Shown: positions 11,461 to 29,197 of the stretch, in pieces
Layout: each line of letters starts with the position of its first letter
Numbering within the stretch: position 1 is the stretch's first letter
NCBI GenBank assembly: GCA_023410645.1
Contig: JAEYPQ010000030.1
Span: forward strand, 11,680 to 75,679
Length of the DNA: 64,000 nucleotides
Direction of reading: 5' to 3'
DNA from: Bacillota bacterium
Lineage (GTDB): Bacteria; Bacillota; Clostridia; TANB77; CAG-465
Notes under the pieces: model-generated
What the model saw: the letters and a program-made list of their open reading frames with translations, nothing else
Databases searched by the model: none
Told to the model about the DNA's origin: nothing
Position numbers and translations under genes: made by a program

Positions 11461-12492
11461 GTGTTTAATGTGAAAGAAGAATTAGAAGAATTAAGAAAAA
11501 TTTCTACTGATGAATTATCAAAAATAACTAGCAAAAATGAATTAGAAGAAATCAGAGTAAAATATTTAGGTAAAAAAGGTGGTCTTACATCACTTTTAAA
11601 ATCACTTGGTGGTTTGGAAGAAGAAGAAAGAAAGAGTGTTGGAAAACTTGCAAATGAAATACGTATAGAAATTGAAAATTTAATTTCTGACAAGCAACAA
11701 GAACTTGAAAATAAAGAAATAGAAGAAAAAATCCAAAATGAAAAAATTGATATTTCTATATCTAATTCAAAATCATCAAAATATGGACATAAACATCCAC
11801 TTACAATAGTTCTTGATGAAATTAAAGATATATTTTTAGGAATGGGATATTCAATTGCAGAAGGCCCAGAAATTGAAACTACATTCTTTAATTTTGATGC
11901 GTTAAATGCACCAGCAGATCATCCATCTCGTGACTTACAAGATACTATGTATATTACAGATAATATAATACTTAGAACTCAGACTTCTCCTGTACAAGCA
12001 AGAACTATGTTAGAACAAAAACCACCTATAAAGATAATTGCACCAGGACGTGTATATAGATCAGATAATGTTGATGCTACACATTCACCAATGTTCCATC
12101 AAGTAGAAGGTCTTGTTGTTGATAAAAATATATCAATGTCTGATTTGAAAGGAACACTTGAAATGTTTTCAAAGAAAATGTTTGGAGAAGATACAAAAAT
12201 AAGACTTAGACCTCATCATTTTCCATTTACTGAACCAAGTTGTGAAGTAGATGTATCATGCTTTGTATGCGGTGGAAAAGGTTGTAAAGTATGTAAAGGT
12301 GAAGGATGGATTGAAATACTTGGTGCAGGTCAAGTACATCCAAATGTGCTAAAAGCATGTAATATAGACTCAAATGAGTATCAAGGATTTGCTTTTGGTG
12401 TTGGCGTTGAAAGAATTGCAATGATTAAATTTGGTATTAACGATTTGAGATATATTTATGAAAACGATACTAGATTTTTAAATCAATTTTAG
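11461..12492 (+). CDS. pheS: Phenylalanine--tRNA ligase alpha subunit
   Basis: Near-colinear with B. subtilis PheS (motifs HPLT, FFNFDALN.P..HP.RD, RTQTSPVQ.RTM, FPFTEPS.EVD, GWIEILGAG.VHP). Coordinates follow the supplied ORF track. By my own reading of the printed sequence the in-frame GTG after AGGGAG is 3 nt upstream of the track start, and an alternative GTG lies 9 nt downstream, so the start is uncertain by a few nt. There is no T-box leader: only about 100 nt of intergenic DNA shared with the divergent rluA-like gene. Confidence 0.88.
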   Translation: MFNVKEELEELRKISTDELSKITSKNELEEIRVKYLGKKGGLTSLLKSLGGLEEEERKSVGKLANEIRIEIENLISDKQQELENKEIEEKIQNEKIDISISNSKSSKYGHKHPLTIVLDEIKDIFLGMGYSIAEGPEIETTFFNFDALNAPADHPSRDLQDTMYITDNIILRTQTSPVQARTMLEQKPPIKIIAPGRVYRSDNVDATHSPMFHQVEGLVVDKNISMSDLKGTLEMFSKKMFGEDTKIRLRPHHFPFTEPSCEVDVSCFVCGGKGCKVCKGEGWIEILGAGQVHPNVLKACNIDSNEYQGFAFGVGVERIAMIKFGINDLRYIYENDTRFLNQF

Positions 12493-12507
12493 GAGTGTGA
12501 ATTTATA

Positions 12508-14901: not shown

Positions 14902-14903
14902 TT

Positions 14904-14940
14904 AAAAGAGCTAGTTAATTTTTAACTAGCTCTTTTAATT
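14904..14940 (+). terminator. Rho-independent terminator after pheT
   Basis: AAAAGAGCTAGTTAA-TTT-TTAACTAGCTCTTTT perfect 15-bp stem followed by a T-run. Confidence 0.75.
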
Positions 14941-15095
14941 TAATATATAATTTATGTGTAAAAATAAAAAATATTTGTTTACATAAACTATTTACAAAAA
15001 ATAATTATTATGATATAATATTCGCATTAAAGTAATTTTTTTTGAAAGTCGAACATAAGAATGTATTATAAGTATCCAAAGGAGGAAAAAATTTA

Positions 15096-15749
15096 ATGGA
15101 ACCTTTTAATGAAAATAATATAATAAATTTGAGAGGAGTTGTATCATCTGAAGTAGAGTATAGTCATGAAGCATTTGACGAAAAATATTACAGATTTTTT
15201 GTTGACACTAAAAGACTTAGTGATTTAAGCGATACTTTACCAATAATAGTATCTGAAAAACTAATCAATATAGATGATATAAAAATTGGAGATGTCGTAT
15301 TTGTAAATGGTCAAGTAAGATCTCATAATCAACCAGTTGAAGATAAAAGAAGCAAATTAATCCTTTCAATTTTTACAAAAGAAATTAGAAAAGAAAGTAT
15401 AGAAGAAGACACTTCTTTAAATGAAGTTATTTTTCAAGGATTTATATGCAAAGAGCCTATTTATAGAAAAACACCACTTGGAAGAGAAATAGCTGATGTA
15501 TTAATAGCTGTAAATAGAGCATATAAAAAATCTGATTATATTCCTTGTATTTTATGGGGAAGAAATGCTAAGTTTTGTGAGTCTTTACCAATAGGAAGCA
15601 AAGTTAGTATAACAGGAAGAATGCAATCAAGAAAATATAGTAAAAAATTAAATGATGAAAATGTAAGAGAAATGACTGCATATGAAGTTTCTGCAAGTAT
15701 GTTCACACTTTTAAAAGATGATGAAAAAGAAGAGATGGCACAAATATAA
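15096..15749 (+). CDS. Tandem OB-fold single-stranded-DNA-binding-like protein
   Basis: Two consecutive SSB-like OB modules: residues 1-100 (INLRGVVSSE...GDVVFVNGQVRSHN) and 110-200 (VIFQGFICKEP...IPCILWGRNAKFC...GSKVSITGRMQSRKY). The pattern matches bacterial SSB (L.GRL...PE.R......W...AE......KGS.V.V.GRLQ.R.Y). Short acidic C-terminus DDEKEEMAQI. Preceded by the promoter TTTACA-17-TGaTATAAT and RBS AAAGGAGG. Confidence 0.5.
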   Translation: MEPFNENNIINLRGVVSSEVEYSHEAFDEKYYRFFVDTKRLSDLSDTLPIIVSEKLINIDDIKIGDVVFVNGQVRSHNQPVEDKRSKLILSIFTKEIRKESIEEDTSLNEVIFQGFICKEPIYRKTPLGREIADVLIAVNRAYKKSDYIPCILWGRNAKFCESLPIGSKVSITGRMQSRKYSKKLNDENVREMTAYEVSASMFTLLKDDEKEEMAQI

Positions 15750-15781
15750 TTTATATATAAAATATGTATTAGAGTAAATAA

Positions 15782-16369
15782 CTAAATGTTATTTACTTTT
15801 TTTGTATATTTAAACTTTGAAGGATCAATAGTGTTACCTTTGACATCAAATAAAGAAAAATGCAAATGTGGGCCTGTTGTCCACCCATTTTGCAATCCAC
15901 TGGATAAAACTTTTGGACCAACATATCCAATTGTCTGACCTTGAATAATTTTTTCACCAACTTTTACAATTATTTTCTCAGACATATGACCATACATTGA
16001 TTTGGTACCATCAAAATGCAAAATAGTAACACATATTCCATAGCCACTTGTAAAACCACAAAAAGTTATAGTACCAGATTTGGTTGCGTAGATTTTTGAA
16101 TTTTCAGGTGCTGGAAAATCAATGCCATTATGAAAATTTTGTTTATTAAATAGCATTCTATAACCATAGTATGATGAAATATGTATTATATCTGTTGGAT
16201 AAATATAGTTTTCTGAATCAATATTTGAATTTAAACTTGAAAATATAAAAGAAATTAAAATGGAAGAAAAAACTAAAATAGAATAAAATTTTTTATACAT
16301 TACATCACCGATTGATATTTTAACATTTAAATTTGAAGTTGTAAATAAAAAAATAAAAAAATAAAACAA
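15782..16369 (-). CDS. Secreted M23 (LytM-type) peptidoglycan endopeptidase
   Basis: N-terminal signal/TM segment. M23 motifs HNGIDFPAP, YGHMSE and GPHLHFSLF. Confidence 0.75.
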   Translation of the reverse strand: MFYFFIFLFTTSNLNVKISIGDVMYKKFYSILVFSSILISFIFSSLNSNIDSENYIYPTDIIHISSYYGYRMLFNKQNFHNGIDFPAPENSKIYATKSGTITFCGFTSGYGICVTILHFDGTKSMYGHMSEKIIVKVGEKIIQGQTIGYVGPKVLSSGLQNGWTTGPHLHFSLFDVKGNTIDPSKFKYTKKVNNI

Positions 16370-16377
16370 TTTTCTAT

Positions 16378-16404
16378 TGCTTTTTTTCTTATTATTGATA
16401 TAAT
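16378..16404 (+). promoter_or_regulatory. Putative sigma-A promoter with extended -10 (TTGCTT...TGaTATAAT) for pilin-like gene 1
   Basis: TTGCTT at 16378-16383 and TGATATAAT at 16396-16404, upstream of RBS GAGGAGG and the ATG at 16435. Confidence 0.4.
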
Positions 16405-16434
16405 TTAATAAGCAACTATCTCGAGGAGGAATTT

Positions 16435-16854
16435 ATGAAAAACACTAGGAATAAAAAAATAGTATTTGAAATCTTATCTATAGTATTAATTTGTATCTTG
16501 TTTACTAGTTCGATTTTTGGATTAACACCATCAGAGCCTGGTAAAGGAAATGAGCTAACACCAATAACAGATTTAGCAGGATCAATTTGGGCAACTTTTG
16601 CAACTGTTGTTCAAGTAGCTGCAATTGTAGCAGTAGTACTTGCTGGAGTAAGATATATGTTTGCATCAGCAGATGCAAAAGCAGATATAAAAAAGCAAAC
16701 TATAACATTGGTTATTGGTGCAGTGTTAGTATTTGCTGCAGTACCACTTACCAAGTTGATTGTCGGTGCTGCAAAAGACATTTTAGACTCTAATAGTGGT
16801 TCTGCACCAAATATAGAAGTAGATCCACGTAATCCAAATCAAATGTCACAATAG
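16435..16854 (+). CDS. VirB2/TrbC-like pilin-family protein, paralog 1 (139 aa)
   Basis: Signal peptide/TM (ILSIVLICILFTSSIFG). Then hydrophobic helix 1 (AGSIWATFATVVQVAAIVAVVLAGV), a short charged loop (RYMFASADAKADIKKQ) and hydrophobic helix 2 (TITLVIGAVLVFAAVPL). This is the TrbC/VirB2 architecture. Assignment is by topology and motif, not by search. Confidence 0.5.
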   Translation: MKNTRNKKIVFEILSIVLICILFTSSIFGLTPSEPGKGNELTPITDLAGSIWATFATVVQVAAIVAVVLAGVRYMFASADAKADIKKQTITLVIGAVLVFAAVPLTKLIVGAAKDILDSNSGSAPNIEVDPRNPNQMSQ

Positions 16855-16949
16855 ATGTGTTATTATGTAGATTATTGCTCTGAATTTAGCTAATTTAGCT
16901 GAAAAATTAAAAAAATATATAAAATTTATATAAAAATTTGAGTAAACTA

Positions 16950-16977
16950 TTGATTTTTGCTAAAAAATGGGTATAAT
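16950..16977 (+). promoter_or_regulatory. Near-consensus sigma-A promoter (TTGATT-16-TATAAT) for pilin-like gene 2
   Basis: TTGATT at 16950-16955, TATAAT at 16972-16977. RBS AAGGAGG 7 nt before the ATG at 17012. Confidence 0.5.
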
Positions 16978-17011
16978 TAAATTAGGGATATAAAACTTAA
17001 GGAGGAATTTT

Positions 17012-17374
17012 ATGAAAAAGTCAAAGAAAATATTATTAAGAGTATTACCTGTATTAATGGTTATGTTTGTACTTATTGCTAGCCCTATTTTTGGAATAGA
17101 TGTTAAGGATCCAGATTCTCTAGGTGGTAAAGGATCAACTGATATTTCAAATGTTGCAGGTAACATTTGGCAAACAATTAGTACAGTAGTTCAAGTAGTT
17201 GCAATTGCAGCAGTAGTACTTGCCGGTGTAAGATATATGTTTGCATCAGCAGACGCAAAAGCAGATATTAAGAAACAAACAGTTATTTTAATAGTTGGAG
17301 CAGTGCTTGTATTTGCGGCAGTACCTTTAATGAAATTGATTGCTTCTGTATCAGATCAGATAATAAATCAATAA
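17012..17374 (+). CDS. VirB2/TrbC-like pilin-family protein, paralog 2 (120 aa; probable major subunit)
   Basis: Same architecture as paralog 1. The C-terminal 75 aa are about 85 percent identical to paralog 1 at both protein and nucleotide level (16606-16749 vs 17186-17330). Strongest promoter and RBS of the three. Followed by a hairpin plus T-run (17413-17450) that could attenuate read-through. Confidence 0.5.
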   Translation: MKKSKKILLRVLPVLMVMFVLIASPIFGIDVKDPDSLGGKGSTDISNVAGNIWQTISTVVQVVAIAAVVLAGVRYMFASADAKADIKKQTVILIVGAVLVFAAVPLMKLIASVSDQIINQ

Positions 17375-17472
17375 ATTATATTGGTGTTACTTAATTATTA
17401 TAGATTATAATTAAAAAAGATATTTTAAGTTTTAACTTATTATATCTTTTTTTATAGAAAGAAGTTGATAAG

Positions 17473-18147
17473 ATGAAAGAAAAAATTATTGCTTTTGTAT
17501 GCATATTTATGTTGTTATTTACAATTGGTACAAATGTACAAGCAGCAAATGCACAGACTACTGAAGGCACTCAAAAAAACTTTCTTGATGACATTTTTGG
17601 GCAGGGAAGCACTTGGTTTAATTCTGCAAAGGGTACAGAAAGTGAGAATAGTTTTGGAAATGCCATTAAAGATTATATTAATAATGGTGGTATAATGCAA
17701 GCCGTGCTTGCAGTTGGAAATCTCGTATTTGCTATTGTTACAGTTACATTAGGTGCAAAGTATATTTTTTCAGGTATAGAAGGTAAATCTATAATAAAAG
17801 AAACTTTGCCAACTTTTGTTGTTGGTGTAATTTTCTTTTATTTAGCTAGTAATTTAGTATTTTTCTTTACAAATGATGCAGGAACTGGTGTATTAAATAT
17901 TTTATTTGGTGGGACACCAAATTTCACCACAATATCAGGTAGTATTTGGTCTACAATTTCAATTGTAATAAATACGGTGTCTATTGCAGGCATTGTGTTT
18001 ATAGGACTTAGATACATGTTTGCTGGTCCTGATTCAAAAGCAGATATTAAAAAAAGCCTTCTACCAGTTACGCTTGGAATTATATTCGTTTATTGTGCAT
18101 TTCAGGTATTAAATTTTATAGTACAAGTTGGAAATGCAGCTATATAA
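17473..18147 (+). CDS. Tandem pilin-module protein (224 aa): signal peptide, soluble segment, then two VirB2/TrbC-like helix-loop-helix modules
   Basis: Signal peptide ending ...NVQAANA. Module A: IMQAVLAVGNLVFAIVTVTLGAKYIFSGIEGKSIIKETLPTFVVGVIFFYLASNLVFF. Module B: GSIWSTISIVINTVSIAGIVFIGLRYMFAGPDSKADIKKSLLPVTLGIIFVYCAF, which shares the RYMFA..D.KADIKK loop with paralogs 1 and 2. Confidence 0.45.
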   Translation: MKEKIIAFVCIFMLLFTIGTNVQAANAQTTEGTQKNFLDDIFGQGSTWFNSAKGTESENSFGNAIKDYINNGGIMQAVLAVGNLVFAIVTVTLGAKYIFSGIEGKSIIKETLPTFVVGVIFFYLASNLVFFFTNDAGTGVLNILFGGTPNFTTISGSIWSTISIVINTVSIAGIVFIGLRYMFAGPDSKADIKKSLLPVTLGIIFVYCAFQVLNFIVQVGNAAI

Positions 18148-18155
18148 TTAATAAA

Positions 18156-18198
18156 TTGTTACATAAAAATTACATTTATGTAACAATTTATTTTTTTG
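18156..18198 (+). terminator. Strong rho-independent terminator after the pilin-like gene triplet
   Basis: Perfect 12-bp stem TTGTTACATAAA / TTTATGTAACAA with 7-nt loop, followed by TTTATTTTTTTG. Confidence 0.75.
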
Positions 18199-18219
18199 TT
18201 TATTTTTGCTTGAAAATTG

Positions 18220-18248
18220 TTGATAAATTAGCGTATTTATGATAAAAT
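18220..18248 (+). promoter_or_regulatory. Putative sigma-A promoter (TTGATA-17-TGaTAAAAT) for the T4SS-like operon
   Basis: TTGATA at 18220-18225 and TAAAAT at 18243-18248 with upstream TG. RBS AGAGGGGGA before the ATG at 18298. Confidence 0.4.
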
Positions 18249-18297
18249 TTCTTAAAGTATGAATTATCATTACTAAAGAAGAGGGGGATATATTAAA

Positions 18298-18642
18298 ATG
18301 GGGAGAACTTATACGGTACCAAGAAGTGTAAAAGGTGAATCTAGATTATTATATATATTTTCAATAAGATCTTTTGTTTCTACTGTTGTATTTGGATTTG
18401 TGGGCTTTTTGATAGGAAGTTTGCTTTCACTTGTTGGAGCTAGTGGTTTAATTAAAGTTATAATGACTGCTGTCTTTGGAATAATTGGATATGGAATGGC
18501 AACACTAGTAATTCCGGATACACCTATTGTTGGAAACTTAAGAAAAGCTGGTGGAGAGCAGGTCGGTGAAATTTTACTTAGAATTATAACTTTTAAAAGA
18601 AGAAAGAAAATATATATTTATAGATATGGGGGAGATAAATAA
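18298..18642 (+). CDS. PrgI / VirB3-like small two-TM protein (114 aa)
   Basis: Size, position immediately upstream of the VirB4-like region, and two adjacent TM helices (VVFGFVGFLIGSLLSLVGA, IKVIMTAVFGIIGYGMATLVI) match the VirB3/PrgI/TcpE-like component of Gram-positive T4SS. Confidence 0.45.
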   Translation: MGRTYTVPRSVKGESRLLYIFSIRSFVSTVVFGFVGFLIGSLLSLVGASGLIKVIMTAVFGIIGYGMATLVIPDTPIVGNLRKAGGEQVGEILLRIITFKRRKKIYIYRYGGDK

Positions 18643-19958
18643 TGGATACAGTTACAATTATTGGTATTGTTTTAATTTTAGGATTTGGAATAGCTTTTAC
18701 AATAGCTATGATTATTCAAGGTAATAAAGCAAAGAAAAATGTTTCCAAGACTTCAAGTGATAAAACTTCAACACAAAAAGATTATAAGACAAATAAAAGT
18801 GGGGAAATACCTAAAAAAGATATATTAAATTTTATGGAGTTTGATAGAATTGTAGATGATATGATTTTACAAGAAAAAGAAAGCAAATATACTATGGTTG
18901 TTCAATGTAAGGGAATAAATTATGATCTTATGTCAGAAATCGAACAATTATCCGTTGAAGAAGGTTTTATAACTTTTTTAAATACTTTAAAATTTCCTGT
19001 ACAATTATATGTACAAGCAAGAGCAATTGATCTTAAAAAGAGTATGGAAATATATAAAGAAAATGTAGATGGTATTTCAAATCAATTTAATGATGCTGAA
19101 AATAGATTGAAAAATGTTGCTAGTAATCTAAATTCTACAAATGCTCAATTAAATGAAGCTAAAATGGAAAGAGAAAAATATTTGAATATGCTTGAATATG
19201 CTAATGACATTAAAAGATATATGGAAGTTTTAAGCCTAAATAAACATGTATTGCAGAGAAAATTCTATGTTGTAATCTCTTATCATAAATCTGAAGTTAC
19301 TGCTACATCAGAATTTACTAAAGAAGAATTACATGAGATATGTCATAGAGAATTATACACAAGAGCACAAACAATTATAAGTGCACTTTCTGCTTGTTCA
19401 GTATCTTCTAGAGTATTATCTTCAAACGAACTTGCAGAGTTATTATATATTTCATATAATAGGGATGATGAAAAATTAATTGATATAAAGACTGCATTGG
19501 ATTCTGGTTTTTATAGATTGTATTCCACATCTGAAGATGTATATGATAAAAAACAAAACCTAATGCAAAGAGAAATTGAAGAAGAGGCTAAAAGAAGAGT
19601 TACAGATGCAATAAAAGAAGCTTTAGATGCTGAAAAAATAAAAACTCCAGATGAATTAACTGAGGAATTTGAAGAAAGAGCTGATAGAGAAGCAATTACT
19701 ATAGTAAGAGATTCAGATATAGATGATGAATCTAAAGATAAACTTATAAATATAATTGCAGAAAATCATGTAGCAAAAGCAAATGTAAGAAAAGATATTA
19801 AAAAGGCTGGTTTAGATAATGAGCAAATTGATAATAAAGTAAATGCTGAAGATAATGATGAGCAAGCTGAATCAAAAGAAGAAAATAATAATATAGATAA
19901 TCAAAGTGAATTAAAAAATGATAAAATCATAAATAATGAAAATGATTCTATTATTTAG
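18642..19958 (+). CDS. T4SS-associated membrane-anchored coiled-coil protein with acidic C-terminal tail (438 aa)
   Basis: Start overlaps the upstream stop (ATAAATGG). One N-terminal TM helix. Residues 60-140 (FMEFDRIVDDMILQEKESKYTMVVQCKGINYDLMSEIEQLSVEEGFITFLNTLKFPVQLYVQ) resemble the N-terminal segment of Gram-positive VirB4 proteins as I recall it. Long coiled coil, then a D/E/N-rich tail. Confidence 0.35.
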   Translation: MDTVTIIGIVLILGFGIAFTIAMIIQGNKAKKNVSKTSSDKTSTQKDYKTNKSGEIPKKDILNFMEFDRIVDDMILQEKESKYTMVVQCKGINYDLMSEIEQLSVEEGFITFLNTLKFPVQLYVQARAIDLKKSMEIYKENVDGISNQFNDAENRLKNVASNLNSTNAQLNEAKMEREKYLNMLEYANDIKRYMEVLSLNKHVLQRKFYVVISYHKSEVTATSEFTKEELHEICHRELYTRAQTIISALSACSVSSRVLSSNELAELLYISYNRDDEKLIDIKTALDSGFYRLYSTSEDVYDKKQNLMQREIEEEAKRRVTDAIKEALDAEKIKTPDELTEEFEERADREAITIVRDSDIDDESKDKLINIIAENHVAKANVRKDIKKAGLDNEQIDNKVNAEDNDEQAESKEENNNIDNQSELKNDKIINNENDSII

Positions 19959-19971
19959 GAGGTAAAATACA

Positions 19972-21945
19972 ATGGGAAAAGATAAAAAAAATAAAAAAGG
20001 TAATAACACTCAAGAAGAACTTGTTAGAGCTAATGAAGAAAGTGTTAATTTTCTAGAATCAAATAAATCAAATTTAAAAGACTTAATATCACCTGCTGGA
20101 ATAGATGCAAGTCATTATGATTATATGGAGATATTCTCTAAAGTGTCTAGATATATTAGAACTTTCTATGTTACAACTTTACCTAGACAAGCATCTTTCC
20201 CTTATTTCTTATCAAATATATATGAATTTGGGGATGTAAATACTTCAGTATTTATAACTCCTATTTCGGAAACTGCATCACAAAGAGATTTAAATAAAAC
20301 TATTGTTGAGTTACAATCCGAAAGGTATGTTGCAGCAGATAGGGGAGATATAAATAGAGCGGCAGTTCTTGCAACTAAGCAATCTGAGGCTGAGGAGTTA
20401 AGAGATCAAATTGCTGCTGGATATAATAAACTATTTGAAGCTACAATTGTTGCTAGTTTATTTGCATATAGTAAAAATGAGCTTGATAAAGCATCTGAAC
20501 TTCTAGCAATGGAAGCTTCAAAAAATATGGTTGGAATAAAAGCTACTTGGGCAATGCAAGAAGAGGCTTTTCAAAGTAACCTACCTCTAAATAAAAATAA
20601 ATTAAATAGAAAACATACTTTTGATAGAGGGTCAATGGCAACAGTTTTTCCTTTTGTTTCTTCGGAAGTTGGACATGATATTGGTGTACCTATTGGAATA
20701 AATAAACAAACTGGATTACCTCTATTGTTTGATAATTTCCACTCTTCTCTTAATAATTATAATATGATAATATTTGGAAAATCTGGATCTGGTAAATCTG
20801 TTACAATTAAAACAATTATGGCAAGATCTTCAGTATTAATGGGAGTTGAAAACTTAGTTATAGATGCTGAAGGAGAATATTCAGTGGTTGCTGAGTCATT
20901 AAATGGAATAAATATAGTAATAAGTCCAAACAGTAATACAATAATAAACATATTCGACATCGAGCCAGAAACAGTAAAAGATGAAATAACTGGTAGGGAA
21001 AGAATAGTTTTAAATGTTGAAAATAAGGTTGAGGATGCAACACAATCTTTATTAACAATGGCTCGTGGTGCTACTAGAAGTCAGGAAGTAAATGAACTTA
21101 CAAAGCAGATAATTGCAGAAATAGTTGCAGAATTATATGCAAGAAGGAAAATTAAAAGTGATATAAATTCACTATATGAAGATGCAAATGAGTTAAATGT
21201 AACAAATAATTTTGTTGGTCTTAAGAAAAAAGAAATGCCGACAATAGGTGATTGGTATGATGTACTTGTAGAAAAAGCATCAGAAAATACCACAGAAACA
21301 TATGCATATCATTATAATTATTTACTTAAAGTAATGAAACAATATTGTAAAAAATTTGATGGTCAAATGTCTTATTTTGATGGTCAATCAACTTTTGAAT
21401 TGATGGATGGTAATCAATTTATAAATCTTAATCTTTCTCAACTTGAAGAAAAATTTGCAAGACCTTTGGCACAGCAAATACTCCTTTCTTGGGTATGGGA
21501 AAAGTATGTTAAGAAAAATAGCGAAAATAGAACTAAGGCAAGAAGAAAAAGGGTTCTTATAGATGAGGCATGGATGTTACTTGATTATCCTGAAGCAGTT
21601 CAATTTTTAAATACAATGGCAAGACGTGCTAGAAAAAGAAATGTTTCTCTTGCAGTTGTATCACAGAAATTCCAAGATTTCTATGAAAAGAAAGAAGCAC
21701 AAGCAGTTTTAACTTCTTCTGATACAAAATTATTTTTGGCTCAAGATAAATCTGAAATTGAATACTTAAAAGAAGTATTTAAATTAAGTGAAGGAGAAAC
21801 AGATTTCTTACTTACATGTTCAAGAGGTGAAGGTCTTATACGTATAGGTCAAGAATCAGCGGTAATTGCTATACAGCCAACACAAAAAGAATTTGAATTT
21901 GTTGAAACAAATTTGACAAATATAATTGCGCGTAAACAAAGCTAA
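19972..21945 (+). CDS. VirB4-family T4SS ATPase (TraE/PrgJ/TcpF-like, 657 aa)
   Basis: Walker A IFGKSGSGKSVT. Walker B in RVLIDEAWMLLD, the DEAW hallmark of VirB4/TrbE/CagE. N-terminal motif RTFYVTTLPRQASFPYFLSNIYEFGDVNTSVFITPI matches the conserved FYV..LP...W/FL....d.s.hI.P block of Gram-positive VirB4. Length matches pIP501 TraE-type VirB4. Confidence 0.8.
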   Translation: MGKDKKNKKGNNTQEELVRANEESVNFLESNKSNLKDLISPAGIDASHYDYMEIFSKVSRYIRTFYVTTLPRQASFPYFLSNIYEFGDVNTSVFITPISETASQRDLNKTIVELQSERYVAADRGDINRAAVLATKQSEAEELRDQIAAGYNKLFEATIVASLFAYSKNELDKASELLAMEASKNMVGIKATWAMQEEAFQSNLPLNKNKLNRKHTFDRGSMATVFPFVSSEVGHDIGVPIGINKQTGLPLLFDNFHSSLNNYNMIIFGKSGSGKSVTIKTIMARSSVLMGVENLVIDAEGEYSVVAESLNGINIVISPNSNTIINIFDIEPETVKDEITGRERIVLNVENKVEDATQSLLTMARGATRSQEVNELTKQIIAEIVAELYARRKIKSDINSLYEDANELNVTNNFVGLKKKEMPTIGDWYDVLVEKASENTTETYAYHYNYLLKVMKQYCKKFDGQMSYFDGQSTFELMDGNQFINLNLSQLEEKFARPLAQQILLSWVWEKYVKKNSENRTKARRKRVLIDEAWMLLDYPEAVQFLNTMARRARKRNVSLAVVSQKFQDFYEKKEAQAVLTSSDTKLFLAQDKSEIEYLKEVFKLSEGETDFLLTCSRGEGLIRIGQESAVIAIQPTQKEFEFVETNLTNIIARKQS

Positions 21946-21951
21946 TTAAGA

Positions 21952-22929
21952 ATGGGTGATGAAATGATTAAATTAAAGAATAAGAAACATATACTAATGA
22001 TTACAATTATTATACTTATGATAGTAGCATTAAATGTATTACCATTTAGTAACATTCATGCATATACGAATGATGCACCTCAGGCATCAGATGCTGAAAA
22101 TCTAGTAAAAGGTGCTATAGGATGGATATTATCCACTGGTGCTGGAGTTTTGGCTACTCCAATAACTTATGTTATAAATATGGTTAATGTTGTAATATTT
22201 AGCATTCTATATACTGTATTTGTAGGTTCTAAGATTGTAGATACTATATTTTCATTTCCAACACCTGATAATGTAATTTTTAATAGAATAGGCTTTTTTG
22301 ACCCTAATTTTATTAATCCTACCCCTGTAGAGAGTGCACCGGTAGTACAAATAAAAACTGTAATTCAAAGTCTATATTATTCTTTCTTTACAGTAGCAAT
22401 AACAATATTTGTTATTGCAGCACTTGTTATTGGAATAAAGCTTGCACTATCTACAATAGCTTCTGAAAAAGCTCAATTTAAGAATGCATTGAAAAATTGG
22501 GTTATGGGTATAGTTTTATTATTTACAATACATTTTGTCATGGCAGGAATTTTTGCAATAAATGAAGAGATAGTTAAAATTGCATCTAACTATGCTGGAG
22601 ACAATATTAGTTTTAATATACAAGTTACTTCTGGAATTCCTGTGGTAGGAAATGCACTGTCTAGTATTATAAGAGGATTTAGTGATTTAATTGGAAGTAA
22701 TAATCCAATTGATGCTTTTCAAATGAATGGATATTTAGGATTAATAATACAATTTTTAGTTAAGTCAGTTGGTGGAGATTTATTATCTTCAATAGCACTT
22801 ACGATAATTTTATTCCAGACTGTTGCGATAGTTGCTATGTATATTAAAAGACTATTTTATTGTATAATCCTTGGAGTAATAGCGCCTCTTGTTGTAGCAG
22901 CAGATGTAGTAAAGAAATCTATAGGTTAA
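21952..22929 (+). CDS. Polytopic membrane protein, VirB6/TrbL-like candidate (325 aa)
   Basis: Signal/TM at N-terminus, then at least 5 TM helices with short loops. Positioned right after the VirB4-like gene as in Tn916/ICEBs1/pCW3-type loci. No catalytic motif. Confidence 0.4.
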   Translation: MGDEMIKLKNKKHILMITIIILMIVALNVLPFSNIHAYTNDAPQASDAENLVKGAIGWILSTGAGVLATPITYVINMVNVVIFSILYTVFVGSKIVDTIFSFPTPDNVIFNRIGFFDPNFINPTPVESAPVVQIKTVIQSLYYSFFTVAITIFVIAALVIGIKLALSTIASEKAQFKNALKNWVMGIVLLFTIHFVMAGIFAINEEIVKIASNYAGDNISFNIQVTSGIPVVGNALSSIIRGFSDLIGSNNPIDAFQMNGYLGLIIQFLVKSVGGDLLSSIALTIILFQTVAIVAMYIKRLFYCIILGVIAPLVVAADVVKKSIG

Positions 22930-22941
22930 AGGAGGATTAAT

Positions 22942-24081
22942 ATGGGAGAAAAAAATAATAAAAAGGGATTATTTGAAAATTGGTTTTCCATGTTTGTTTC
23001 CAATGTTTTTATACAAAGCTTTCAAGCAGTATTTTTAATGTTTCTATTGCAATTTATAGCAGGGGTACAAAAATCAAATGCATCTGATATGCTTATTGCA
23101 TTATTAACTATTGCTGGACTTGCTGGTATAATTAAATTTGAAAAATTAGTCCAAGAAATATTTCAAATTAAAGAATCTAAAAGTGGTAGTTTCGGTAGAA
23201 ACTTCTATAGAACTATGCAGGGTATAAAAAGTGGTTCTGATCTAGTAAGTAGAACTTCAGAGCCTTTTAAAAACTATGCAAATGTTAAGAGAAATAGAAT
23301 TAAATTAGACAATGAAATAGCGGCAAGAAAAATCACTGATAAACCAAAAACTCAGGATAGTGGTGTTGGTACTAGTACAGGTGGTACAGGTGCTACAGTT
23401 CAAGGCACTGCTGCAAGTCAAATCTTAAATCCTCAATCTGGAGGGACTGCTAGACAAATTGTAGACGCTAATGGAAATCCTATTTCAAGTGGAAGATTTT
23501 CAACTGGACCAGTTGTTGCAGCTAGTTCTAATGGACAAAATATTTCAGGTGGAAGTTTTGAAAAAATGGAAGCTAGCTTAGACAGATTAGCAAAAATTAT
23601 GGAAAAGAGTACTGGAGTTTCTGATAATTCTTCTAAATCGATACCAGAGTTAGAAAAACAAAGAGATGAATTAAAACTTCAAGAATCTAAATTAGGAATG
23701 CAAAGATTTACTAGACTTGGAACAACGCTTGCTGCTGTTGGTGGAGCTTTTGGCGCAAATGATGGAGATTTTGGGGAGGCTATGACTCTTGCAAATGTTG
23801 TTGATAAACCTTTGGATTCTGCAAGTGACAAGATGATTAATAGTAGGGTTTATAAACCAAGATACAAAGAGGCACTCCAAGAGTATAACCAAGCTATACA
23901 AACAAAAAGCCCTGATGCTATGGAAGCATTCAAAAAACTTGAATCAGCAAGTAAAACAATGCATAATTCACTTGCAAGAGAAGCTGAAGATTTTGCTAGA
24001 AGCGCCGTAAATTCGTTTACACCTTCTAAAGAAGCAAGAAAAAAGCGTAGAGTAGATATTGATAGTATAGATGTAATTTAG
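22942..24081 (+). CDS. Membrane protein with two N-terminal TM helices, Gly/Thr/Ser-rich linker and C-terminal coiled coil (379 aa)
   Basis: RBS AAAGGAGG before the ATG. Low-complexity segment GVGTSTGGTGATVQGTAASQ. Coiled-coil C-terminus. No recognisable enzymatic motif. Confidence 0.35.
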   Translation: MGEKNNKKGLFENWFSMFVSNVFIQSFQAVFLMFLLQFIAGVQKSNASDMLIALLTIAGLAGIIKFEKLVQEIFQIKESKSGSFGRNFYRTMQGIKSGSDLVSRTSEPFKNYANVKRNRIKLDNEIAARKITDKPKTQDSGVGTSTGGTGATVQGTAASQILNPQSGGTARQIVDANGNPISSGRFSTGPVVAASSNGQNISGGSFEKMEASLDRLAKIMEKSTGVSDNSSKSIPELEKQRDELKLQESKLGMQRFTRLGTTLAAVGGAFGANDGDFGEAMTLANVVDKPLDSASDKMINSRVYKPRYKEALQEYNQAIQTKSPDAMEAFKKLESASKTMHNSLAREAEDFARSAVNSFTPSKEARKKRRVDIDSIDVI

Positions 24082-24091
24082 GAGAGTTTAT

Positions 24092-24670
24092 ATGTTTAAA
24101 CAATTAAATAAAGGAACTAATATAATAATTATAGTAGTATTTGCACTTGCCTGTTTGAGTTTTATTATAAATGCCATTATAGGTATATTTAAAAAACCAG
24201 AGTTATTGAATACTGATGATATAACTCAATATATAATAACTGATAATGTTGTTGATGAAAATGGAAATATAACAAAAGCTTCTAATATAGTTAAAGATTA
24301 TAATACTTTTTACACTTTGCAAGATGCTACTGAAAACTTTATACAATATATAGTCGATCAAAAATTTTCTCAAACATATAGTGTACTTTCTGATGAAATT
24401 AAAAGTAAATATTCTAAATCAGAGTACGAAGATAAGATTAAAGTTGTATATGATAAAAACTTTTCAGTCACTTATAGTGATGAGAATATAAAAAATGGAC
24501 AAGATAATGGAATTAATAATTTTAATAACTCAAATAATTTGGTAAATTTATATAAAATATCTGAAAATGAATATATTTGTGAGACTAAGAATGTACATTC
24601 AAAAATTTTTAAACTAGGTATAAGATTGGAAAATAATAATACATATAAAGTTTTTTATATTGATTTTTAA
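24092..24670 (+). CDS. N-terminally anchored extracytoplasmic protein (192 aa), possible VirB8-like scaffold
   Basis: Single N-terminal TM (IIIIVVFALACLSFIINAIIGIF) followed by a soluble mixed alpha/beta domain. Role inferred only from context. Confidence 0.3.
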   Translation: MFKQLNKGTNIIIIVVFALACLSFIINAIIGIFKKPELLNTDDITQYIITDNVVDENGNITKASNIVKDYNTFYTLQDATENFIQYIVDQKFSQTYSVLSDEIKSKYSKSEYEDKIKVVYDKNFSVTYSDENIKNGQDNGINNFNNSNNLVNLYKISENEYICETKNVHSKIFKLGIRLENNNTYKVFYIDF

Positions 24671-24680
24671 GAGGTGTTTG

Positions 24681-25556
24681 ATGGAAGAACAAAAAAATAG
24701 TAAAATAATATTAGGTTTATCCGCTATATTTATTTTGGTATTTGTGATTATTGCTATATTTGCATTAGTACAAATATGGAAACCTAAAGACAATACTGAA
24801 GAAAAAATTGTTTTATCGTCTAGTAATGATAAAATAGGTACATATAAGAAAATTAAGTATACTGAAAATCAGCAAATTTCCCAGTATATAACTCTTGTCA
24901 CTAATGCTATTGTTAGTAGTGATACTGATAAATTATATTCTATGTTAAATGAGGAATATAGAGATTATTTTAGCATTGATAAAACAAAAGCAGAAAACAT
25001 TTTTAAGACAAGAGGATTTCTTGGAAGAATGTTAACTTCTGACAAATATACTAAGGCTACAATAGATGGTAGAAGCATTTATATAGTTCCTTTAAAGACT
25101 TCCGTAAATGGAGCAATATATGATAATGTGATAATAACTGAATATTCACCAAGAAAATTTTCTATTGCTTTTGATGATTTCCTTACTTATGATAAATCAG
25201 AAAAAGTATATTATAGAGATGAACTTAAATTAGTTGTATATAATAAAGTTAATTTTATAACTTCGGTAAGTGCTAAAGTTAAGATTACAAATTTATCAGA
25301 TGAGAGAATAACAATAAATGATTCACACAAATATGAGAATTTCTACATAAGATTTAATGATCAAAGCGAAGTATTAACAAATTTGAGCTTTTTATCTGGT
25401 GAATCTTATGAGATGATAAAAAATCAGGAATTGGCTTTTGATGCTTCTTTTGAAATTCCTGCATTATCTCATCAGGCAATAAATTCATATGTATTAAAAG
25501 ATGTTAAATATATGAAAAATGGTGCCACAAAAGATTTAGAATTTAATATAAAATAG
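24681..25556 (+). CDS. N-terminally anchored extracytoplasmic protein (291 aa), possible VirB8/TcpC-like
   Basis: ATG at 24681 follows GAGGTG (24671-24676); the six-frame ORF opens at 24660. Single TM (ILGLSAIFILVFVIIAIFALV) then a soluble domain. Size and topology are like TcpC/VirB8-like proteins, by inference. Confidence 0.3.
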   Translation: MEEQKNSKIILGLSAIFILVFVIIAIFALVQIWKPKDNTEEKIVLSSSNDKIGTYKKIKYTENQQISQYITLVTNAIVSSDTDKLYSMLNEEYRDYFSIDKTKAENIFKTRGFLGRMLTSDKYTKATIDGRSIYIVPLKTSVNGAIYDNVIITEYSPRKFSIAFDDFLTYDKSEKVYYRDELKLVVYNKVNFITSVSAKVKITNLSDERITINDSHKYENFYIRFNDQSEVLTNLSFLSGESYEMIKNQELAFDASFEIPALSHQAINSYVLKDVKYMKNGATKDLEFNIK

Positions 25557-25595
25557 GTAGTTTGTTTGCTATATAAAAAAGCGAGGTGATATTAT

Positions 25596-28500
25596 TTGGA
25601 CGATTTTGAAAAAGAGTACGAAGAAGAGCTACTTAGACAACAACAAGAAGAACAAAGAAATCAAGATATAAATATTAGGGATACATATGATAAATTAAAA
25701 AGTGCACAAGAAAAATACCAAAAACTTTCTGACAAAATTAATAGTTCAAATAATAATCTTAAACAAGGCTCTTTAAATAGAGATGCAGCAAATAATATAA
25801 ATAAATCAGCTGGAAAAAAAGCTACTGAGCAAGGTGCTAAATCAGTAAGTAATGAAGCTGCTAAGAGTGCTGGAAAAGAAGCTGCAAAAACTGCTGGAAA
25901 AGAGGCTGTAAAAAAAACTGGTGAAGAAGCTGCGAAAGAGGCGGGGAAGCAGGTAGCAAAAACTGCAGCAAAAGAAGCAGCTAAAAAGGGAGCTGAAACT
26001 GCTGCAGCTGGTACAGGAGTTGGTATACCTATTGCTGCTGCAATTGAGGCTGCTGACCAGGCACAAAAGCTAAAAGTAAAAGCAGAAGAAAAAATAAAGG
26101 AAACTACTGGAATAGATTTAAAAGAATCAAGAAAAAAGAGGAGAAAAATTGTCATAGCATTAGCACTTAGTTTGTTATTTATACTTTTAACGACAAATTA
26201 TGTTTCGAGTCAAGATTTAAATACTACACTTAAATCTTTAATTGCTAGAAGAGAAGCAAGAAATGAAAAGAAGTTAATACAATTTACAGATTCCGAATAT
26301 GATGATTTAATAAACAAAGATTATGTAGATTTACCATCAGGTTACTCTGATAATTCTGTAAATGATGAAAAGTATGCAGATCCAGGTTATAAAAGAATGC
26401 TCGAATATGCATATAGTAATAATTATGATTCTTTTTTAGCTGGTAAAACTACTATAGATAATCAGACAAAAAAAAGCGAAGTTGCTGCAAGTAACACAAG
26501 AAAATATTTAGAAGCAGAAAGACTTAATTTCAATAAAATAAAATGGTATTCATACAAAAGTAACTATACATATAATCATTCATCAAGTTTAGCAAACGAT
26601 GTTGTACCAACATTCTTAAATTCAAGTACAGGTTCAATTCAGGCAAATGGTAAAATTACGGATTCAGAGCTAAATATTCCAAAGTTATCTGAATATGACG
26701 TAAATCCAGGAAGTAATACAAAGCAAAAAGAAGATATGTATATTGATTTACTATCAAATTATATGCAAAAATGGTTTATTCCATATTTAATGATGATTGA
26801 TACGCAGTCAAAGGAATTTACAATTAATGAAGTAATGGAAAAAATGTATAGTCCTGTTAACGTAACTTTATACCAGATTAATAGAGATACCAAAAAAACG
26901 AAAACTACTTACTACCTAGAGTGTGAGGTAGTTATTAGGACAATTACAACTACGATTGGACCTAATGGTGAAATAAGTACCAGTTCACATATTTCAGACA
27001 GAAGAAATTCTAATACTAAGAATGATCCTGTTGGAACAACTAGTTATAATAATGGTAATACTACAATAGAAAAGACAGTAACTTCAAATGGTAAAATTGC
27101 AACTGATTCTTCTGGAAATCCTATGGTAGCATCTGTTACTGTTGAAAGAAATATATCACCATATAAGTATGTACCTAAGATAACTTATTGCGAGGGATTT
27201 TATGATATAATAAGTGCAAGATACAAAATTGATCCTATAAATGAGGCAATAACTCCAAAAAGCACATCTGAAACGCCTCTTACATCGTCGGATGCTAATA
27301 CTTCATATATTACAAAGACTGAGATTTGGGATGAAAATATATTAAATGATGTATATGAAAAGAAAGATTATAAAGTCTCATACTATTCAGATGAAGATTA
27401 TAAGAACTTGGGAAGAAAAGTATCAAGAGTTGAATGGTATCAAGATTATGGAAATTATTTATATAAATCTGGAAAATCTGATGTTGATTTAAAGATCTAT
27501 GACAATGAGATATATCCATTAAAAGTTACAAATAAAGGTGAAACTATTGATGGATATCAAAATGATTATTTATTGAGTTTAGAAGAAGCCTATGACTCAT
27601 ACTCAAATTCAAAAGGATATTCGTATGATGATATGTATTTTGCATATACATTAATAAGTGAATATTATAGTAATATAAATAGTCTTGGAAGTGATGTAAA
27701 TTTAAATTTAAATGGTATACCTTATGATGGATTTGCTTGGCCAGTTGAGATAACAGCAGAAAATCCAGGTACTAATGTTATAAATACACTTTTTGGACTT
27801 ACACCAGCTTATGGAAGTAGTCATACTGGAATAGATATATCAAGTGGAAATCTAAGATATAAGGAAGGAAACTTAACTAAAGGACCTAAAATTTTGGCGG
27901 CACATGATGGAGTTGTTACAGCTGTTTCTAACACTGCCACATCTGATTCAGTATATGATTCTAGCACTGGTCAATTTACTTATATATCACCATATAACTT
28001 TGTAAATATTAGAACACAAGATGGCACTTATACAACTCAATATGGGCATTTATCTGAAATTAATGTTAAGGTAGGAGATACTGTAAAAAGGGGACAAGTT
28101 ATAGGAAGGATGGGTACAACTGGTTATTCTACGGGAGTTCATTTGCATTTTGAGATAATAGATTCTACTGGTGAAAGACTAGATCCTTTGAATTATTATA
28201 TTACAGATCCAGAATATGGAAGTATTAACCGTAACTCAATAACTTCAATGCCAAGTGGTTATGTATATTTAAGGCCTAAGACATTTAGTATATCTGGAAA
28301 TTCACAAATTTCTGATATGATAGCAAAGGCTATAGAATTAGCAAATAAAAAGAATATTTTATATAGACAAAACGGAAGACAAACGGCTAGCACTATAGTT
28401 GGATTAGATAATATTACTCAGGCAGATTGTAGTTCATTTGTATATTCTTTATTTAAAACATACTTAAATATAAACGTCGGAATGACTTCTGATGATATAA

Positions 28501-29183
28501 AAAGTAGAGGCGATAATAAGCATTCTGAAAATGGTTGGACTGCCGAATCAGGAGCCATAAATTCTGATTATTCTAAACTTCAACCAGGTGATATATTATG
28601 GCGCAGTGGACACGTTGGACTATATGTTGGTGATGGAAAACAAGTTGATCTTGGTGGTCCTGGAGGGGAAAATTCTGAAGCAGATCCTAATTGGAAAGGG
28701 CCAATTTATGATACAGACATAGATGGCTATACACATTATATAAGATATGTGAATAAAAATGCATTAAATGGAGTTAGTGCAGAAGATATCTTATTAATGT
28801 CTAGAATTATTGCACAAGAAGCTGGATACAATATGGAAGATTGTTTAGCTGTTGCAGCTGTAATTGTTAATAGAGTAAAAAGTCAAAGCAATGATTTTAA
28901 AGATGAAGACACGGTTCGCAAAGTTATTTATCCTGCAGGAGATGATATGGCTAAAAATAGATTGCAATGGGCATCAATAGGTGGAGTAGAATTTAATAAA
29001 GAACCTGATAAGAGTAAGGCACCGTATAAAGCTGCATTAATGGCCATAGCTGGTGAAGATCCAACAGGAGGAGCACTATATTTCTATAGTCCAAGAGGTG
29101 GATTTTATAGTGAATGGCATGAATCCTTAAAATATTTGTATACGTCACCAAATGGTCAAAGATTCTTTACACCAGAAGAATAG
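25596..29183 (+). CDS. Multidomain peptidoglycan hydrolase (VirB1/PrgK/CwlT analogue, 1195 aa)
   Basis: N-terminal coiled coil plus Lys/Ala-rich degenerate 8-aa repeats (AGKEAAKT-like, 25800-26000). One TM (IVIALALSLLFILLTT), then a large extracytoplasmic region. M23 domain: HTGIDISSG, AAHDGVVTAV, YGHLSE, GVHLHFEI. NlpC/P60 domain: ADCSSFVYSLF with Cys, GHVGLYVGDG with His. SleB-type cell wall hydrolase (Hydrolase_2) domain: LMSRIIAQEAG...LAVAAVIVNRVKS...GGALYFYSP. Confidence 0.75.
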   Translation: MDDFEKEYEEELLRQQQEEQRNQDINIRDTYDKLKSAQEKYQKLSDKINSSNNNLKQGSLNRDAANNINKSAGKKATEQGAKSVSNEAAKSAGKEAAKTAGKEAVKKTGEEAAKEAGKQVAKTAAKEAAKKGAETAAAGTGVGIPIAAAIEAADQAQKLKVKAEEKIKETTGIDLKESRKKRRKIVIALALSLLFILLTTNYVSSQDLNTTLKSLIARREARNEKKLIQFTDSEYDDLINKDYVDLPSGYSDNSVNDEKYADPGYKRMLEYAYSNNYDSFLAGKTTIDNQTKKSEVAASNTRKYLEAERLNFNKIKWYSYKSNYTYNHSSSLANDVVPTFLNSSTGSIQANGKITDSELNIPKLSEYDVNPGSNTKQKEDMYIDLLSNYMQKWFIPYLMMIDTQSKEFTINEVMEKMYSPVNVTLYQINRDTKKTKTTYYLECEVVIRTITTTIGPNGEISTSSHISDRRNSNTKNDPVGTTSYNNGNTTIEKTVTSNGKIATDSSGNPMVASVTVERNISPYKYVPKITYCEGFYDIISARYKIDPINEAITPKSTSETPLTSSDANTSYITKTEIWDENILNDVYEKKDYKVSYYSDEDYKNLGRKVSRVEWYQDYGNYLYKSGKSDVDLKIYDNEIYPLKVTNKGETIDGYQNDYLLSLEEAYDSYSNSKGYSYDDMYFAYTLISEYYSNINSLGSDVNLNLNGIPYDGFAWPVEITAENPGTNVINTLFGLTPAYGSSHTGIDISSGNLRYKEGNLTKGPKILAAHDGVVTAVSNTATSDSVYDSSTGQFTYISPYNFVNIRTQDGTYTTQYGHLSEINVKVGDTVKRGQVIGRMGTTGYSTGVHLHFEIIDSTGERLDPLNYYITDPEYGSINRNSITSMPSGYVYLRPKTFSISGNSQISDMIAKAIELANKKNILYRQNGRQTASTIVGLDNITQADCSSFVYSLFKTYLNINVGMTSDDIKSRGDNKHSENGWTAESGAINSDYSKLQPGDILWRSGHVGLYVGDGKQVDLGGPGGENSEADPNWKGPIYDTDIDGYTHYIRYVNKNALNGVSAEDILLMSRIIAQEAGYNMEDCLAVAAVIVNRVKSQSNDFKDEDTVRKVIYPAGDDMAKNRLQWASIGGVEFNKEPDKSKAPYKAALMAIAGEDPTGGALYFYSPRGGFYSEWHESLKYLYTSPNGQRFFTPEE

Positions 29184-29197
29184 GGGAGTAGAAGTAG

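Follow-up and report, generated by a model that had tools for sequence, protein, structure and literature searches.

We analyzed a stretch of 64,000 nucleotides (hereafter the window) from a Bacillota bacterium (GenBank assembly GCA_023410645.1, contig JAEYPQ010000030.1, positions 11,680 to 75,679 of the forward strand). It carries a chromosomal gene cluster for a type IV secretion system (T4SS), in which a 438-aa protein (18642-19958) is encoded just ahead of a 657-aa ATPase (19972-21945), both on the + strand, where an earlier note made from the sequence alone had placed them. The G+C content is about 25% across the whole window. The cluster is co-directional and lies between the gene of an SSB with two OB folds and that of an S1-domain protein. 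Besides these two genes, the housekeeping genes around it are pheS/pheT and those of oligoendopeptidase F, RNase R, a ClpB-type ATPase, FBPase, a Mur ligase and Ddl. From 5' to 3', the cluster is composed of three pilin genes, a PrgI/VirB3-like gene, the 438-aa gene, the ATPase gene, the gene of a 325-aa membrane protein, three accessory genes and the gene of a 1195-aa hydrolase (Table 1).

The 438-aa gene is real and has orthologues in 80 species-level genomes. Its product possesses, as the earlier note had it, a single transmembrane (TM) helix (i.e., one strong hydrophobic helix at residues ~3-26 and nothing else above threshold). Such a helix is found in all 56 diverse family members that we compared, and is absent from TrsD of the conjugative plasmid pSK41. 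The segment formerly singled out for its likeness to VirB4 N-termini (FMEFDRIV...VQLYVQ) corresponds to residues 65-125; within the family, conservation is highest in the block from K59 to R127, where many columns are invariant. A long coiled coil had been proposed to follow this segment. The helical stretch does exist, but it is an antiparallel hairpin (residues ~131-199) inserted within an alpha/beta domain, which resumes at residues 203-290. The hairpin sequence is variable and the region is far shorter in TrsD, where it appears as a gap in the hhalign alignment. The AlphaFold model of the whole protein is of low confidence, with a predicted local distance difference test (pLDDT) score of 64, and the model of the core (residues 55-300, alignment of 63 sequences) reaches 82.5 and displays the alpha/beta domain interrupted by the hairpin. 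Beyond the core, a C-terminal extension of ~140 residues, helical and acidic, is present in the chromosomal lineage only. The D/E/N-rich tail expected there is confirmed, since 12 of the 38 residues at 401-438 are D/E and another 10 are N. Among 27 close orthologues, 24 keep a D-[DE]-S-I-[VI]-type end after a low-complexity tail of variable length (19842-19958); this end, which may be a docking motif, is not found in the plasmid forms of ~300-365 aa, which stop near residue 300-365. No Walker A/B P-loop ATPase domain was found in the 438-aa protein, which matches no P-loop family (Pfam, NCBIfam). It is not a VirB4, only a protein resembling its N-terminal subdomain.

The genes on both sides are very closely connected to the 438-aa gene. 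The junction with the upstream gene reads GATAAATAATGG, in which the stop codon TAA (18640-18642) and the ATG (18642-18644) have one base in common (TAATG). The overlap announced by the earlier note is thus real, but the string that it quoted (ATAAATGG) is not literally there. At the other end, the 438-aa gene stops with a TAG embedded in the GGAGG that serves the ATPase gene as ribosome-binding site, and this stop is 13 nt 5' of the ATPase ATG. The PrgI-like, 438-aa and ATPase genes are tightly translationally coupled, and their three products would be made in fixed proportion. The gene order is invariant. We recovered 80 loci from the GTDB species representatives, of which 79 allow the order to be judged, and in every one of these the PrgI-like gene is followed by the 438-like gene and then by that of the ATPase, with no fusion of the genes and with an intergenic gap of -14 to 73 nt (median ~17). 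The PrgI/VirB3-like gene is directly 5' of the 438-aa homologue in 79 of the 80 loci. Moreover, no fused long protein was seen among the best 150 matches of the representative search that returned 1274 clusters.

The 657-aa protein is, as predicted, a VirB4-type ATPase, with a P-loop domain of the TraG/AAA_10/DUF87 type, Walker A and B motifs and similarity to VirB4 from end to end. It passes the Pfam thresholds of P-loop_TraG (PF19044; 59.1 bits for a cutoff of 25.8), AAA_10 (PF12846) and DUF87 (PF01935). Its Walker A motif, GKSGSGKS, occupies residues 269-276 (20776-20799) and its Walker B motif, VLIDE, residues 528-532 (21553-21567). In the NCBIfam scan, it matches VirB4 models with E-values of 1e-32 to 3.5e-69. 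However, these matches begin deep inside the models: at position 179 of 752 for CD1110 (NF045971; match 179-730, E 3.5e-69), 281 of 894 for VirB4_plasma (NF045975; match 281-891, E 1.9e-62) and 212 of 792 for TIGR00929 (match 212-744). The VirB4 N-terminal domain of this protein therefore lacks its first part. With 233.9 bits over model positions 179-730 only, it stays below the CD1110 equivalog cutoff (325 bits, full-length), whereas the long-form PrgJ of pCF10, taken as a control, spans positions 1-751 with 901 bits. The same truncation is observed in TrsE (pSK41), BCE_A0025 (pBc10987) and a Clostridium beijerinckii plasmid ATPase, which all begin at CD1110 positions 177-183; in each case, a TrsD-like gene comes just before. 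From residue ~56-61 on, the window ATPase and pSK41 TrsE are collinear. TraE of pIP501, to which its size had been likened and which had been proposed for comparison, is itself a short form, as is TrsE of pSK41, the two being preceded by TraD/TrsD.

The missing part of VirB4 is found in the 438-aa family. For family comparisons, we used an alignment of 56 diverse sequences (20-55% identity) drawn from an exhaustive profile search, which retrieved 1274 representative clusters (50% identity) at E ≤ 0.001. When scanned singly, 39 of these 56 members matched VirB4_plasma (best E 1.4e-7), over model positions ~91-282 (start at 51 or 91). Other models were matched less often, i.e., TrsD/TraD by nine members (best E 2.4e-6), CD1110 by three (1.1e-4) and TIGR00929 by two, one of them at positions 21-111. 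For these relatives, the matches to VirB4_plasma and TIGR00929 are confined to the N-terminal model positions that are absent from the ATPase. On VirB4_plasma, the matches of the family and of the ATPase are complementary and join at position 281/282. Concerning the window protein, a precomputed match to the Pfam family PF26593 (TraC-like) exists for the identical protein, bearing no weak mark (E ≤ 1e-5). The hhalign comparison of the family alignment with the single pSK41 TrsD sequence gave an E-value of 0.0053, with a probability of just 6.8%, over 165 columns that cover residues 73-273 of the window protein and 46-216 of TrsD (i.e., nearly all of it). Finally, a Foldseek search with the core model placed chains of R388 TrwK/VirB4 at 14 of the top 33 ranks (E ~0.01-0.2, probability 0.84-1.00, TM 0.30-0.43).

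Several results weigh against an N-terminal VirB4 identity. The window protein itself matches no VirB4 or TrsD model in the NCBIfam and local Pfam scans. In particular, it gives no match at E ≤ 1 to the TrsD/TraD model NF041427 (cutoff 200 bits), to which pSK41 TrsD scores 227.6 bits, and the TrsD matches of its relatives are far under this cutoff (~17 bits, a figure from one relative, P0216). The PF26593 match was not reproduced; the local Pfam scan never gave this model, even for three relatives which carry it, and the model is probably not in that copy. This local scan of the protein, its core and the three relatives returned no VirB4-type match, one relative showing TraC_F_IV at E 0.055. 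The hmmsearch comparison with pSK41 TrsD was not significant. None of the Foldseek hits reached E ≤ 0.001, and FemX/FemA and BAR domains are interspersed among them, and when the PDB was searched by sequence and by profile, nothing beyond chance coiled-coil matches came up. The resemblance to PrgJ/TcpF-type N-termini that the earlier note pointed to is right in position, the best alignments falling at the N-termini (PrgJ 57-215, TcpF 21-97), but these direct tests against single sequences are not significant, either by hhalign (E 0.44-0.62) or by hmmsearch. A database search with the N-terminal 330 aa of PrgJ yielded 13 proteins, mostly fragmentary. The link of the window protein to VirB4 goes through the precomputed Pfam match and the transitive evidence of its family.

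Taking both sides into account, we consider, with a probability of roughly 0.78, that the 438-aa protein is of the TrsD/TraD type and is homologous, as a separate polypeptide, to the first ~180-280 residues of full-length VirB4, and that the neighboring short VirB4 has lost exactly that part. What the data show is homology, complementarity of the model coordinates, an invariant gene order, tight translational coupling and conservation. Of the options left by the earlier note, the split VirB4 N-domain is the one upheld: the ATPase lacks the N-terminal part, the relatives match VirB4_plasma at ~91-282 and PF26593 was precomputed. We class the protein with the known TrsD/TraC-like group, of which it is a divergent member, extended and anchored in the membrane, and the splitting of VirB4 is itself already known from staphylococcal plasmids and Patescibacteria. 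The homology of TrsD to the VirB4 N-terminus is already in the literature and is, therefore, not new; what differs here is the membrane helix, the much longer hairpin and the lineage-specific C-terminal extension.

The protein could also share this TrsD-like ancestry and act otherwise than as a piece of the motor, i.e., as an adaptor or receptor tethered to the membrane (which could, for example, take the place of a coupling protein, or use its C-terminal helices and acidic tail to recruit substrates or pilins) or as an assembly factor. In favor of this, neither a coupling protein nor a relaxase was found in the scanned 64-kb window, the extension with its D-[DE]-S-I-[VI] end is conserved in the chromosomal lineage only, and the literature gives TrsD no function. 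We nevertheless regard this role as rather improbable: it is the VirB4-like core, and not the extension, that is most conserved, the plasmid relatives devoid of the extension hold the same gene position, and the complementary model coordinates favor a structural role. Much less probable still, the protein could be a coiled-coil scaffold or stator (VirB8-, VirB10- or HlyD-like) with no relation to VirB4, their likeness being due to chance; the distinct stator-like component that the earlier note had allowed for is not supported, and we rejected it on the model coordinates and the hidden Markov model evidence. Least credible is a duplication, with a second VirB4 N-domain beside a complete ATPase; such an extra copy could plausibly dock since VirB4 dimerizes through its N-domains, but the model coordinates, complementary and not overlapping, largely refute it, the ATPase lacking CD1110 positions 1-178 and VirB4_plasma positions 1-280, i.e., those matched by the 438-aa family.

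If the 438-aa protein is the detached first part of VirB4, a mechanism can be proposed from the R388 structure. In this system, VirB3 wraps the N-terminal domain of VirB4 (TrwK residues 15-400), and the interface of the VirB4 dimer is made entirely of N-domains (PMC9259494). The products of the three coupled genes would together rebuild the membrane-proximal face of the VirB4 motor. Held at the membrane by its own helix, the 438-aa protein would provide in trans the surface that VirB3 wraps and that dimerizes VirB4. The 657-aa subunit would contribute what remains of the N-domain, and would form the hexameric ATPase ring, by which pilin extraction and substrate transfer are energized. More speculatively, the hairpin, the C-terminal helices, the acidic tail and the terminal motif could constitute extra interaction surfaces for other parts of the machine or for substrates.

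The 80 loci all belong to Clostridia from the gut or the environment that have not been cultured; the record titles include Clostridium sp. CAG:465 and CAG:1219, and some read Bacillota bacterium or Eubacteriales bacterium. We take these genomes to be those of the GTDB order TANB77; a literature search combining TANB77 and type IV secretion found nothing relevant. Across species (79 for the ATPase), identity is 65-85% for the ATPase, 38-60% for the 438-aa protein and, in most loci, ~50-63% for the adjacent SSB. One locus (L041), compared with window positions 11461-30028, has the most similar flanks (pheS 85%, pheT 77%, SSB 88%, S1 85%), and yet its T4SS genes, at the same site, are far more divergent (438-aa protein 49%, ATPase 75%, pilins 40-46%, 325-aa protein 31%). 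Other species show the opposite, with 82-85% for the ATPase and 52-61% for the SSB. This suggests either fast diversification or recombinational replacement of the cluster. In some genomes, the whole cluster is present in two copies, either adjoining on one contig (L037 and L046, CAYZTN010000004.1) or within one metagenome-assembled genome (L056 and L060). The gene pair is also found on large plasmids of C. beijerinckii, C. botulinum, C. perfringens and the B. cereus group, including the pXO1-like pBc10987, as well as on integrase- or partition-bearing metagenomic contigs.

The other genes of the cluster, with the parts of the 438-aa protein, are given in Table 1.

Table 1. Genes of the T4SS cluster and parts of the 438-aa protein (positions in the window; residue numbers are those of the 438-aa protein).
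Feature	Position	Strand	Basis
VirB2/TrbC-like pilin gene 1 (139 aa)	16435..16854	+	Pfam TrbC PF04956, E 1.1e-7, above threshold; T4SS_pilin weaker; syntenic in 74/80 loci
VirB2/TrbC-like pilin gene 2 (120 aa)	17012..17374	+	Pfam TrbC, E 5.1e-9; syntenic in 74/80 loci
Larger pilin-like membrane protein (224 aa) with C-terminal T4SS_pilin-like segment	17473..18147	+	PF18895, E 8.8e-5, below threshold; in 64/80 loci
PrgI/VirB3-like small membrane protein (114 aa)	18298..18642	+	PF12666 PrgI, E 0.0019, below threshold
Probable TrsD-like membrane-anchored VirB4 N-terminal-subdomain protein (438 aa)	18642..19958	+	Precomputed PF26593; VirB4_plasma and TrsD matches of the family; hhalign; Foldseek
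N-terminal TM helix (residues ~3-26), followed by a basic linker (28-58)	18648..18719	+	Kyte-Doolittle 19-residue maximum 2.76; linker net charge +6
Alpha/beta core, first half (residues 59-130), with the segment quoted earlier	18816..19031	+	Strands and helix, pLDDT 83-93
Inserted antiparallel helical hairpin (residues 131-199)	19032..19238	+	AlphaFold2 helices 131-161 and 167-199 (full model); pLDDT ~85-97 in the core model
Alpha/beta core, second half (residues 200-295)	19239..19526	+	Conserved LQRKFY..SY and ELAELLY.SYNRDD blocks; aligned to TrsD 130-216
C-terminal extension specific to the lineage (helices at residues 299-400; D/E/N-rich tail at 401-438, with D-S-I-I as its end)	19536..19958	+	AlphaFold2 secondary structure; composition
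Short-form VirB4-type ATPase (657 aa)	19972..21945	+	NCBIfam and Pfam matches; Walker motifs; collinearity with pSK41 TrsE
Polytopic membrane protein (325 aa), candidate VirB6 analogue	21952..22929	+	Weak match to MMCAP2_0566 conjugal-transfer family, E 3.1e-5; in 69/80 loci
Three accessory genes (379, 192 and 298 aa)	22942..25556	+	Kept only in the nearest relatives, 14-17/80 loci
Multidomain cell-wall hydrolase (1195 aa), M23 and SleB-type Hydrolase_2, VirB1-type function	25596..29183	+	NCBIfam M23 and SleB; precomputed Peptidase_M23, NLPC_P60 (faint) and Hydrolase_2

The family MMCAP2_0566, weakly matched by the 325-aa protein, is a conjugal-transfer family of a Mycoplasma integrative and conjugative element (ICE). 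The 325-aa protein also contains an internal T4SS_pilin-like segment, just under threshold (E 1.1e-5), and a membrane protein of ~900-1330 aa takes its place in the plasmid relatives. None of the three accessory genes gave a family match above threshold in the Pfam scan. In the 1195-aa hydrolase, whose N-terminal region is rich in alanine and lysine, a membrane helix is combined with M23 and SleB-type domains and possibly with an NlpC/P60 domain. Matches to it were obtained in just 34 of the 80 loci, some of them falling instead on a small upstream M23 peptidase gene. Directly 5' of the pilin genes (15096-16369) lie the two-OB-fold SSB gene (PRK05813 type) and, divergently transcribed, this small M23 peptidase gene; they keep their synteny with the cluster in 41 and 53 of the 80 loci, respectively. 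An SSB is also encoded in the transfer region of pSK41.

The more interesting point is the context, namely a conserved chromosomal T4SS with a pilin array and no nearby relaxase in gut Clostridia, which mirrors the Patescibacteria system. Among the scanned open reading frames of the 64-kb window (and not of the whole genome), we found no relaxase, coupling protein or integrase. The relaxase and type IV coupling protein that accompany a conjugative T4SS are thus not found by the cluster within the scanned window, and its flanks are housekeeping. The pair could belong to a chromosomally fixed, non-conjugative T4SS of a kind so far described only for Patescibacteria, inherited in a gut Clostridia lineage and serving, in connection with lifestyle, as a pilus or in contact-dependent activity or DNA or nutrient exchange. 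The elongated 438-aa protein, through its lineage-specific C-terminus and terminal D-[DE]-S-I-[VI] motif, would then replace the coupling protein as a receptor for substrates or partners. We put this forward as a tentative, and on balance unlikely, possibility.

The identification of the 438-aa protein as a detached part of VirB4 settles the annotation of a widespread "hypothetical protein", whose 1274 representative clusters can be described as the first part of VirB4, always paired with a short VirB4. As judged from model coordinates, TrsD-type proteins may have a concrete structural role, that of completing the VirB3-binding N-domain of VirB4. Moreover, the conservation of a Patescibacteria-style set of components in ~80 uncultured gut Clostridia species could bear on the origin of this system and on its role in monoderms.

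Among the closest known systems is the TrsD/TraD protein of staphylococcal and enterococcal conjugative plasmids (pGO1/pSK41; NF041427), whose gene also lies between a VirB3-like gene and a short VirB4 of ~660-670 aa devoid of its N-terminal ~180 residues. In pSK41, the order is likewise CagC/VirB2-like, TrsC, TrsD (227 aa), TrsE (672 aa, annotated DUF87), the membrane protein TrsF and a CHAP hydrolase, the PrgI-like gene of the window being at the TrsC position and the 325-aa gene at the TrsF position. However, pSK41 TrsD is only 227 aa long; it has neither a TM helix nor the C-terminal extension, and what corresponds to the hairpin is short. In addition, the conjugative plasmid pSK41 possesses a relaxase and a coupling protein, whereas the window cluster is chromosomal with neither nearby. 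We discarded the "TraD" of pELF as a comparison, as it concerns a VirD4 homologue. The membrane-anchored homologues of 304-335 aa on the plasmids of Clostridium (C. beijerinckii p1, C. botulinum) and of the B. cereus group (pBc10987, BCE_A0026/BCE_A0025) are also encoded directly 5' of a short VirB4 (658-699 aa), with 27-30% identity to the 438-aa protein for the Clostridium plasmids and ~23% for pBc10987. A large membrane protein and then a peptidase follow there too, and pSK41, pBc10987 and the C. beijerinckii plasmid each have a hydrolase at the place of the 1195-aa protein. The Clostridium and B. cereus group clusters differ from the window system in being plasmid-borne, in lacking the helical and acidic C-terminal extension and in having a single, very large VirB6-like protein. 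Compared with the N-subdomain of full-length VirB4 proteins (PF26593; Mycoplasma ICE VirB4, NF045975; R388 TrwK 15-400), the 438-aa protein is a separate polypeptide without P-loop and represents the first part of the N-domain only, the remainder staying on the 657-aa protein.

The Patescibacteria offer the other comparison. TrsD has been described as a remote homologue of the VirB4 N-terminus, with no assigned function, found in the pGO1 subclass of MPF_FATA (PMC12102498). It is also the T4SS component most abundantly recovered in Patescibacteria, together with VirB4, PrgI/VirB3, VirB6 and arrays of VirB2-like genes, and a TrsD homologue was reported to be essential in an epibiotic Saccharibacterium (PMC12102498). 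In the same work, the Gram-positive T4SS classes are stated to lack major pilin genes, and tandem arrays are treated as a feature of Patescibacteria (PMC12102498). The window carries three tandem VirB2/TrbC-like pilin genes (16435-18147) in the chromosome of a presumably monoderm member of the Clostridia, and pSK41 has one gene of the CagC family. The window cluster and the Patescibacteria T4SS differ in their host, here a gut Clostridia lineage, and in the large cell-wall hydrolase of the window cluster, and their likeness is one of component set. On this basis they are alike: both are chromosomal, with no adjoining relaxase, and both comprise a TrsD homologue and tandem VirB2-like pilins.

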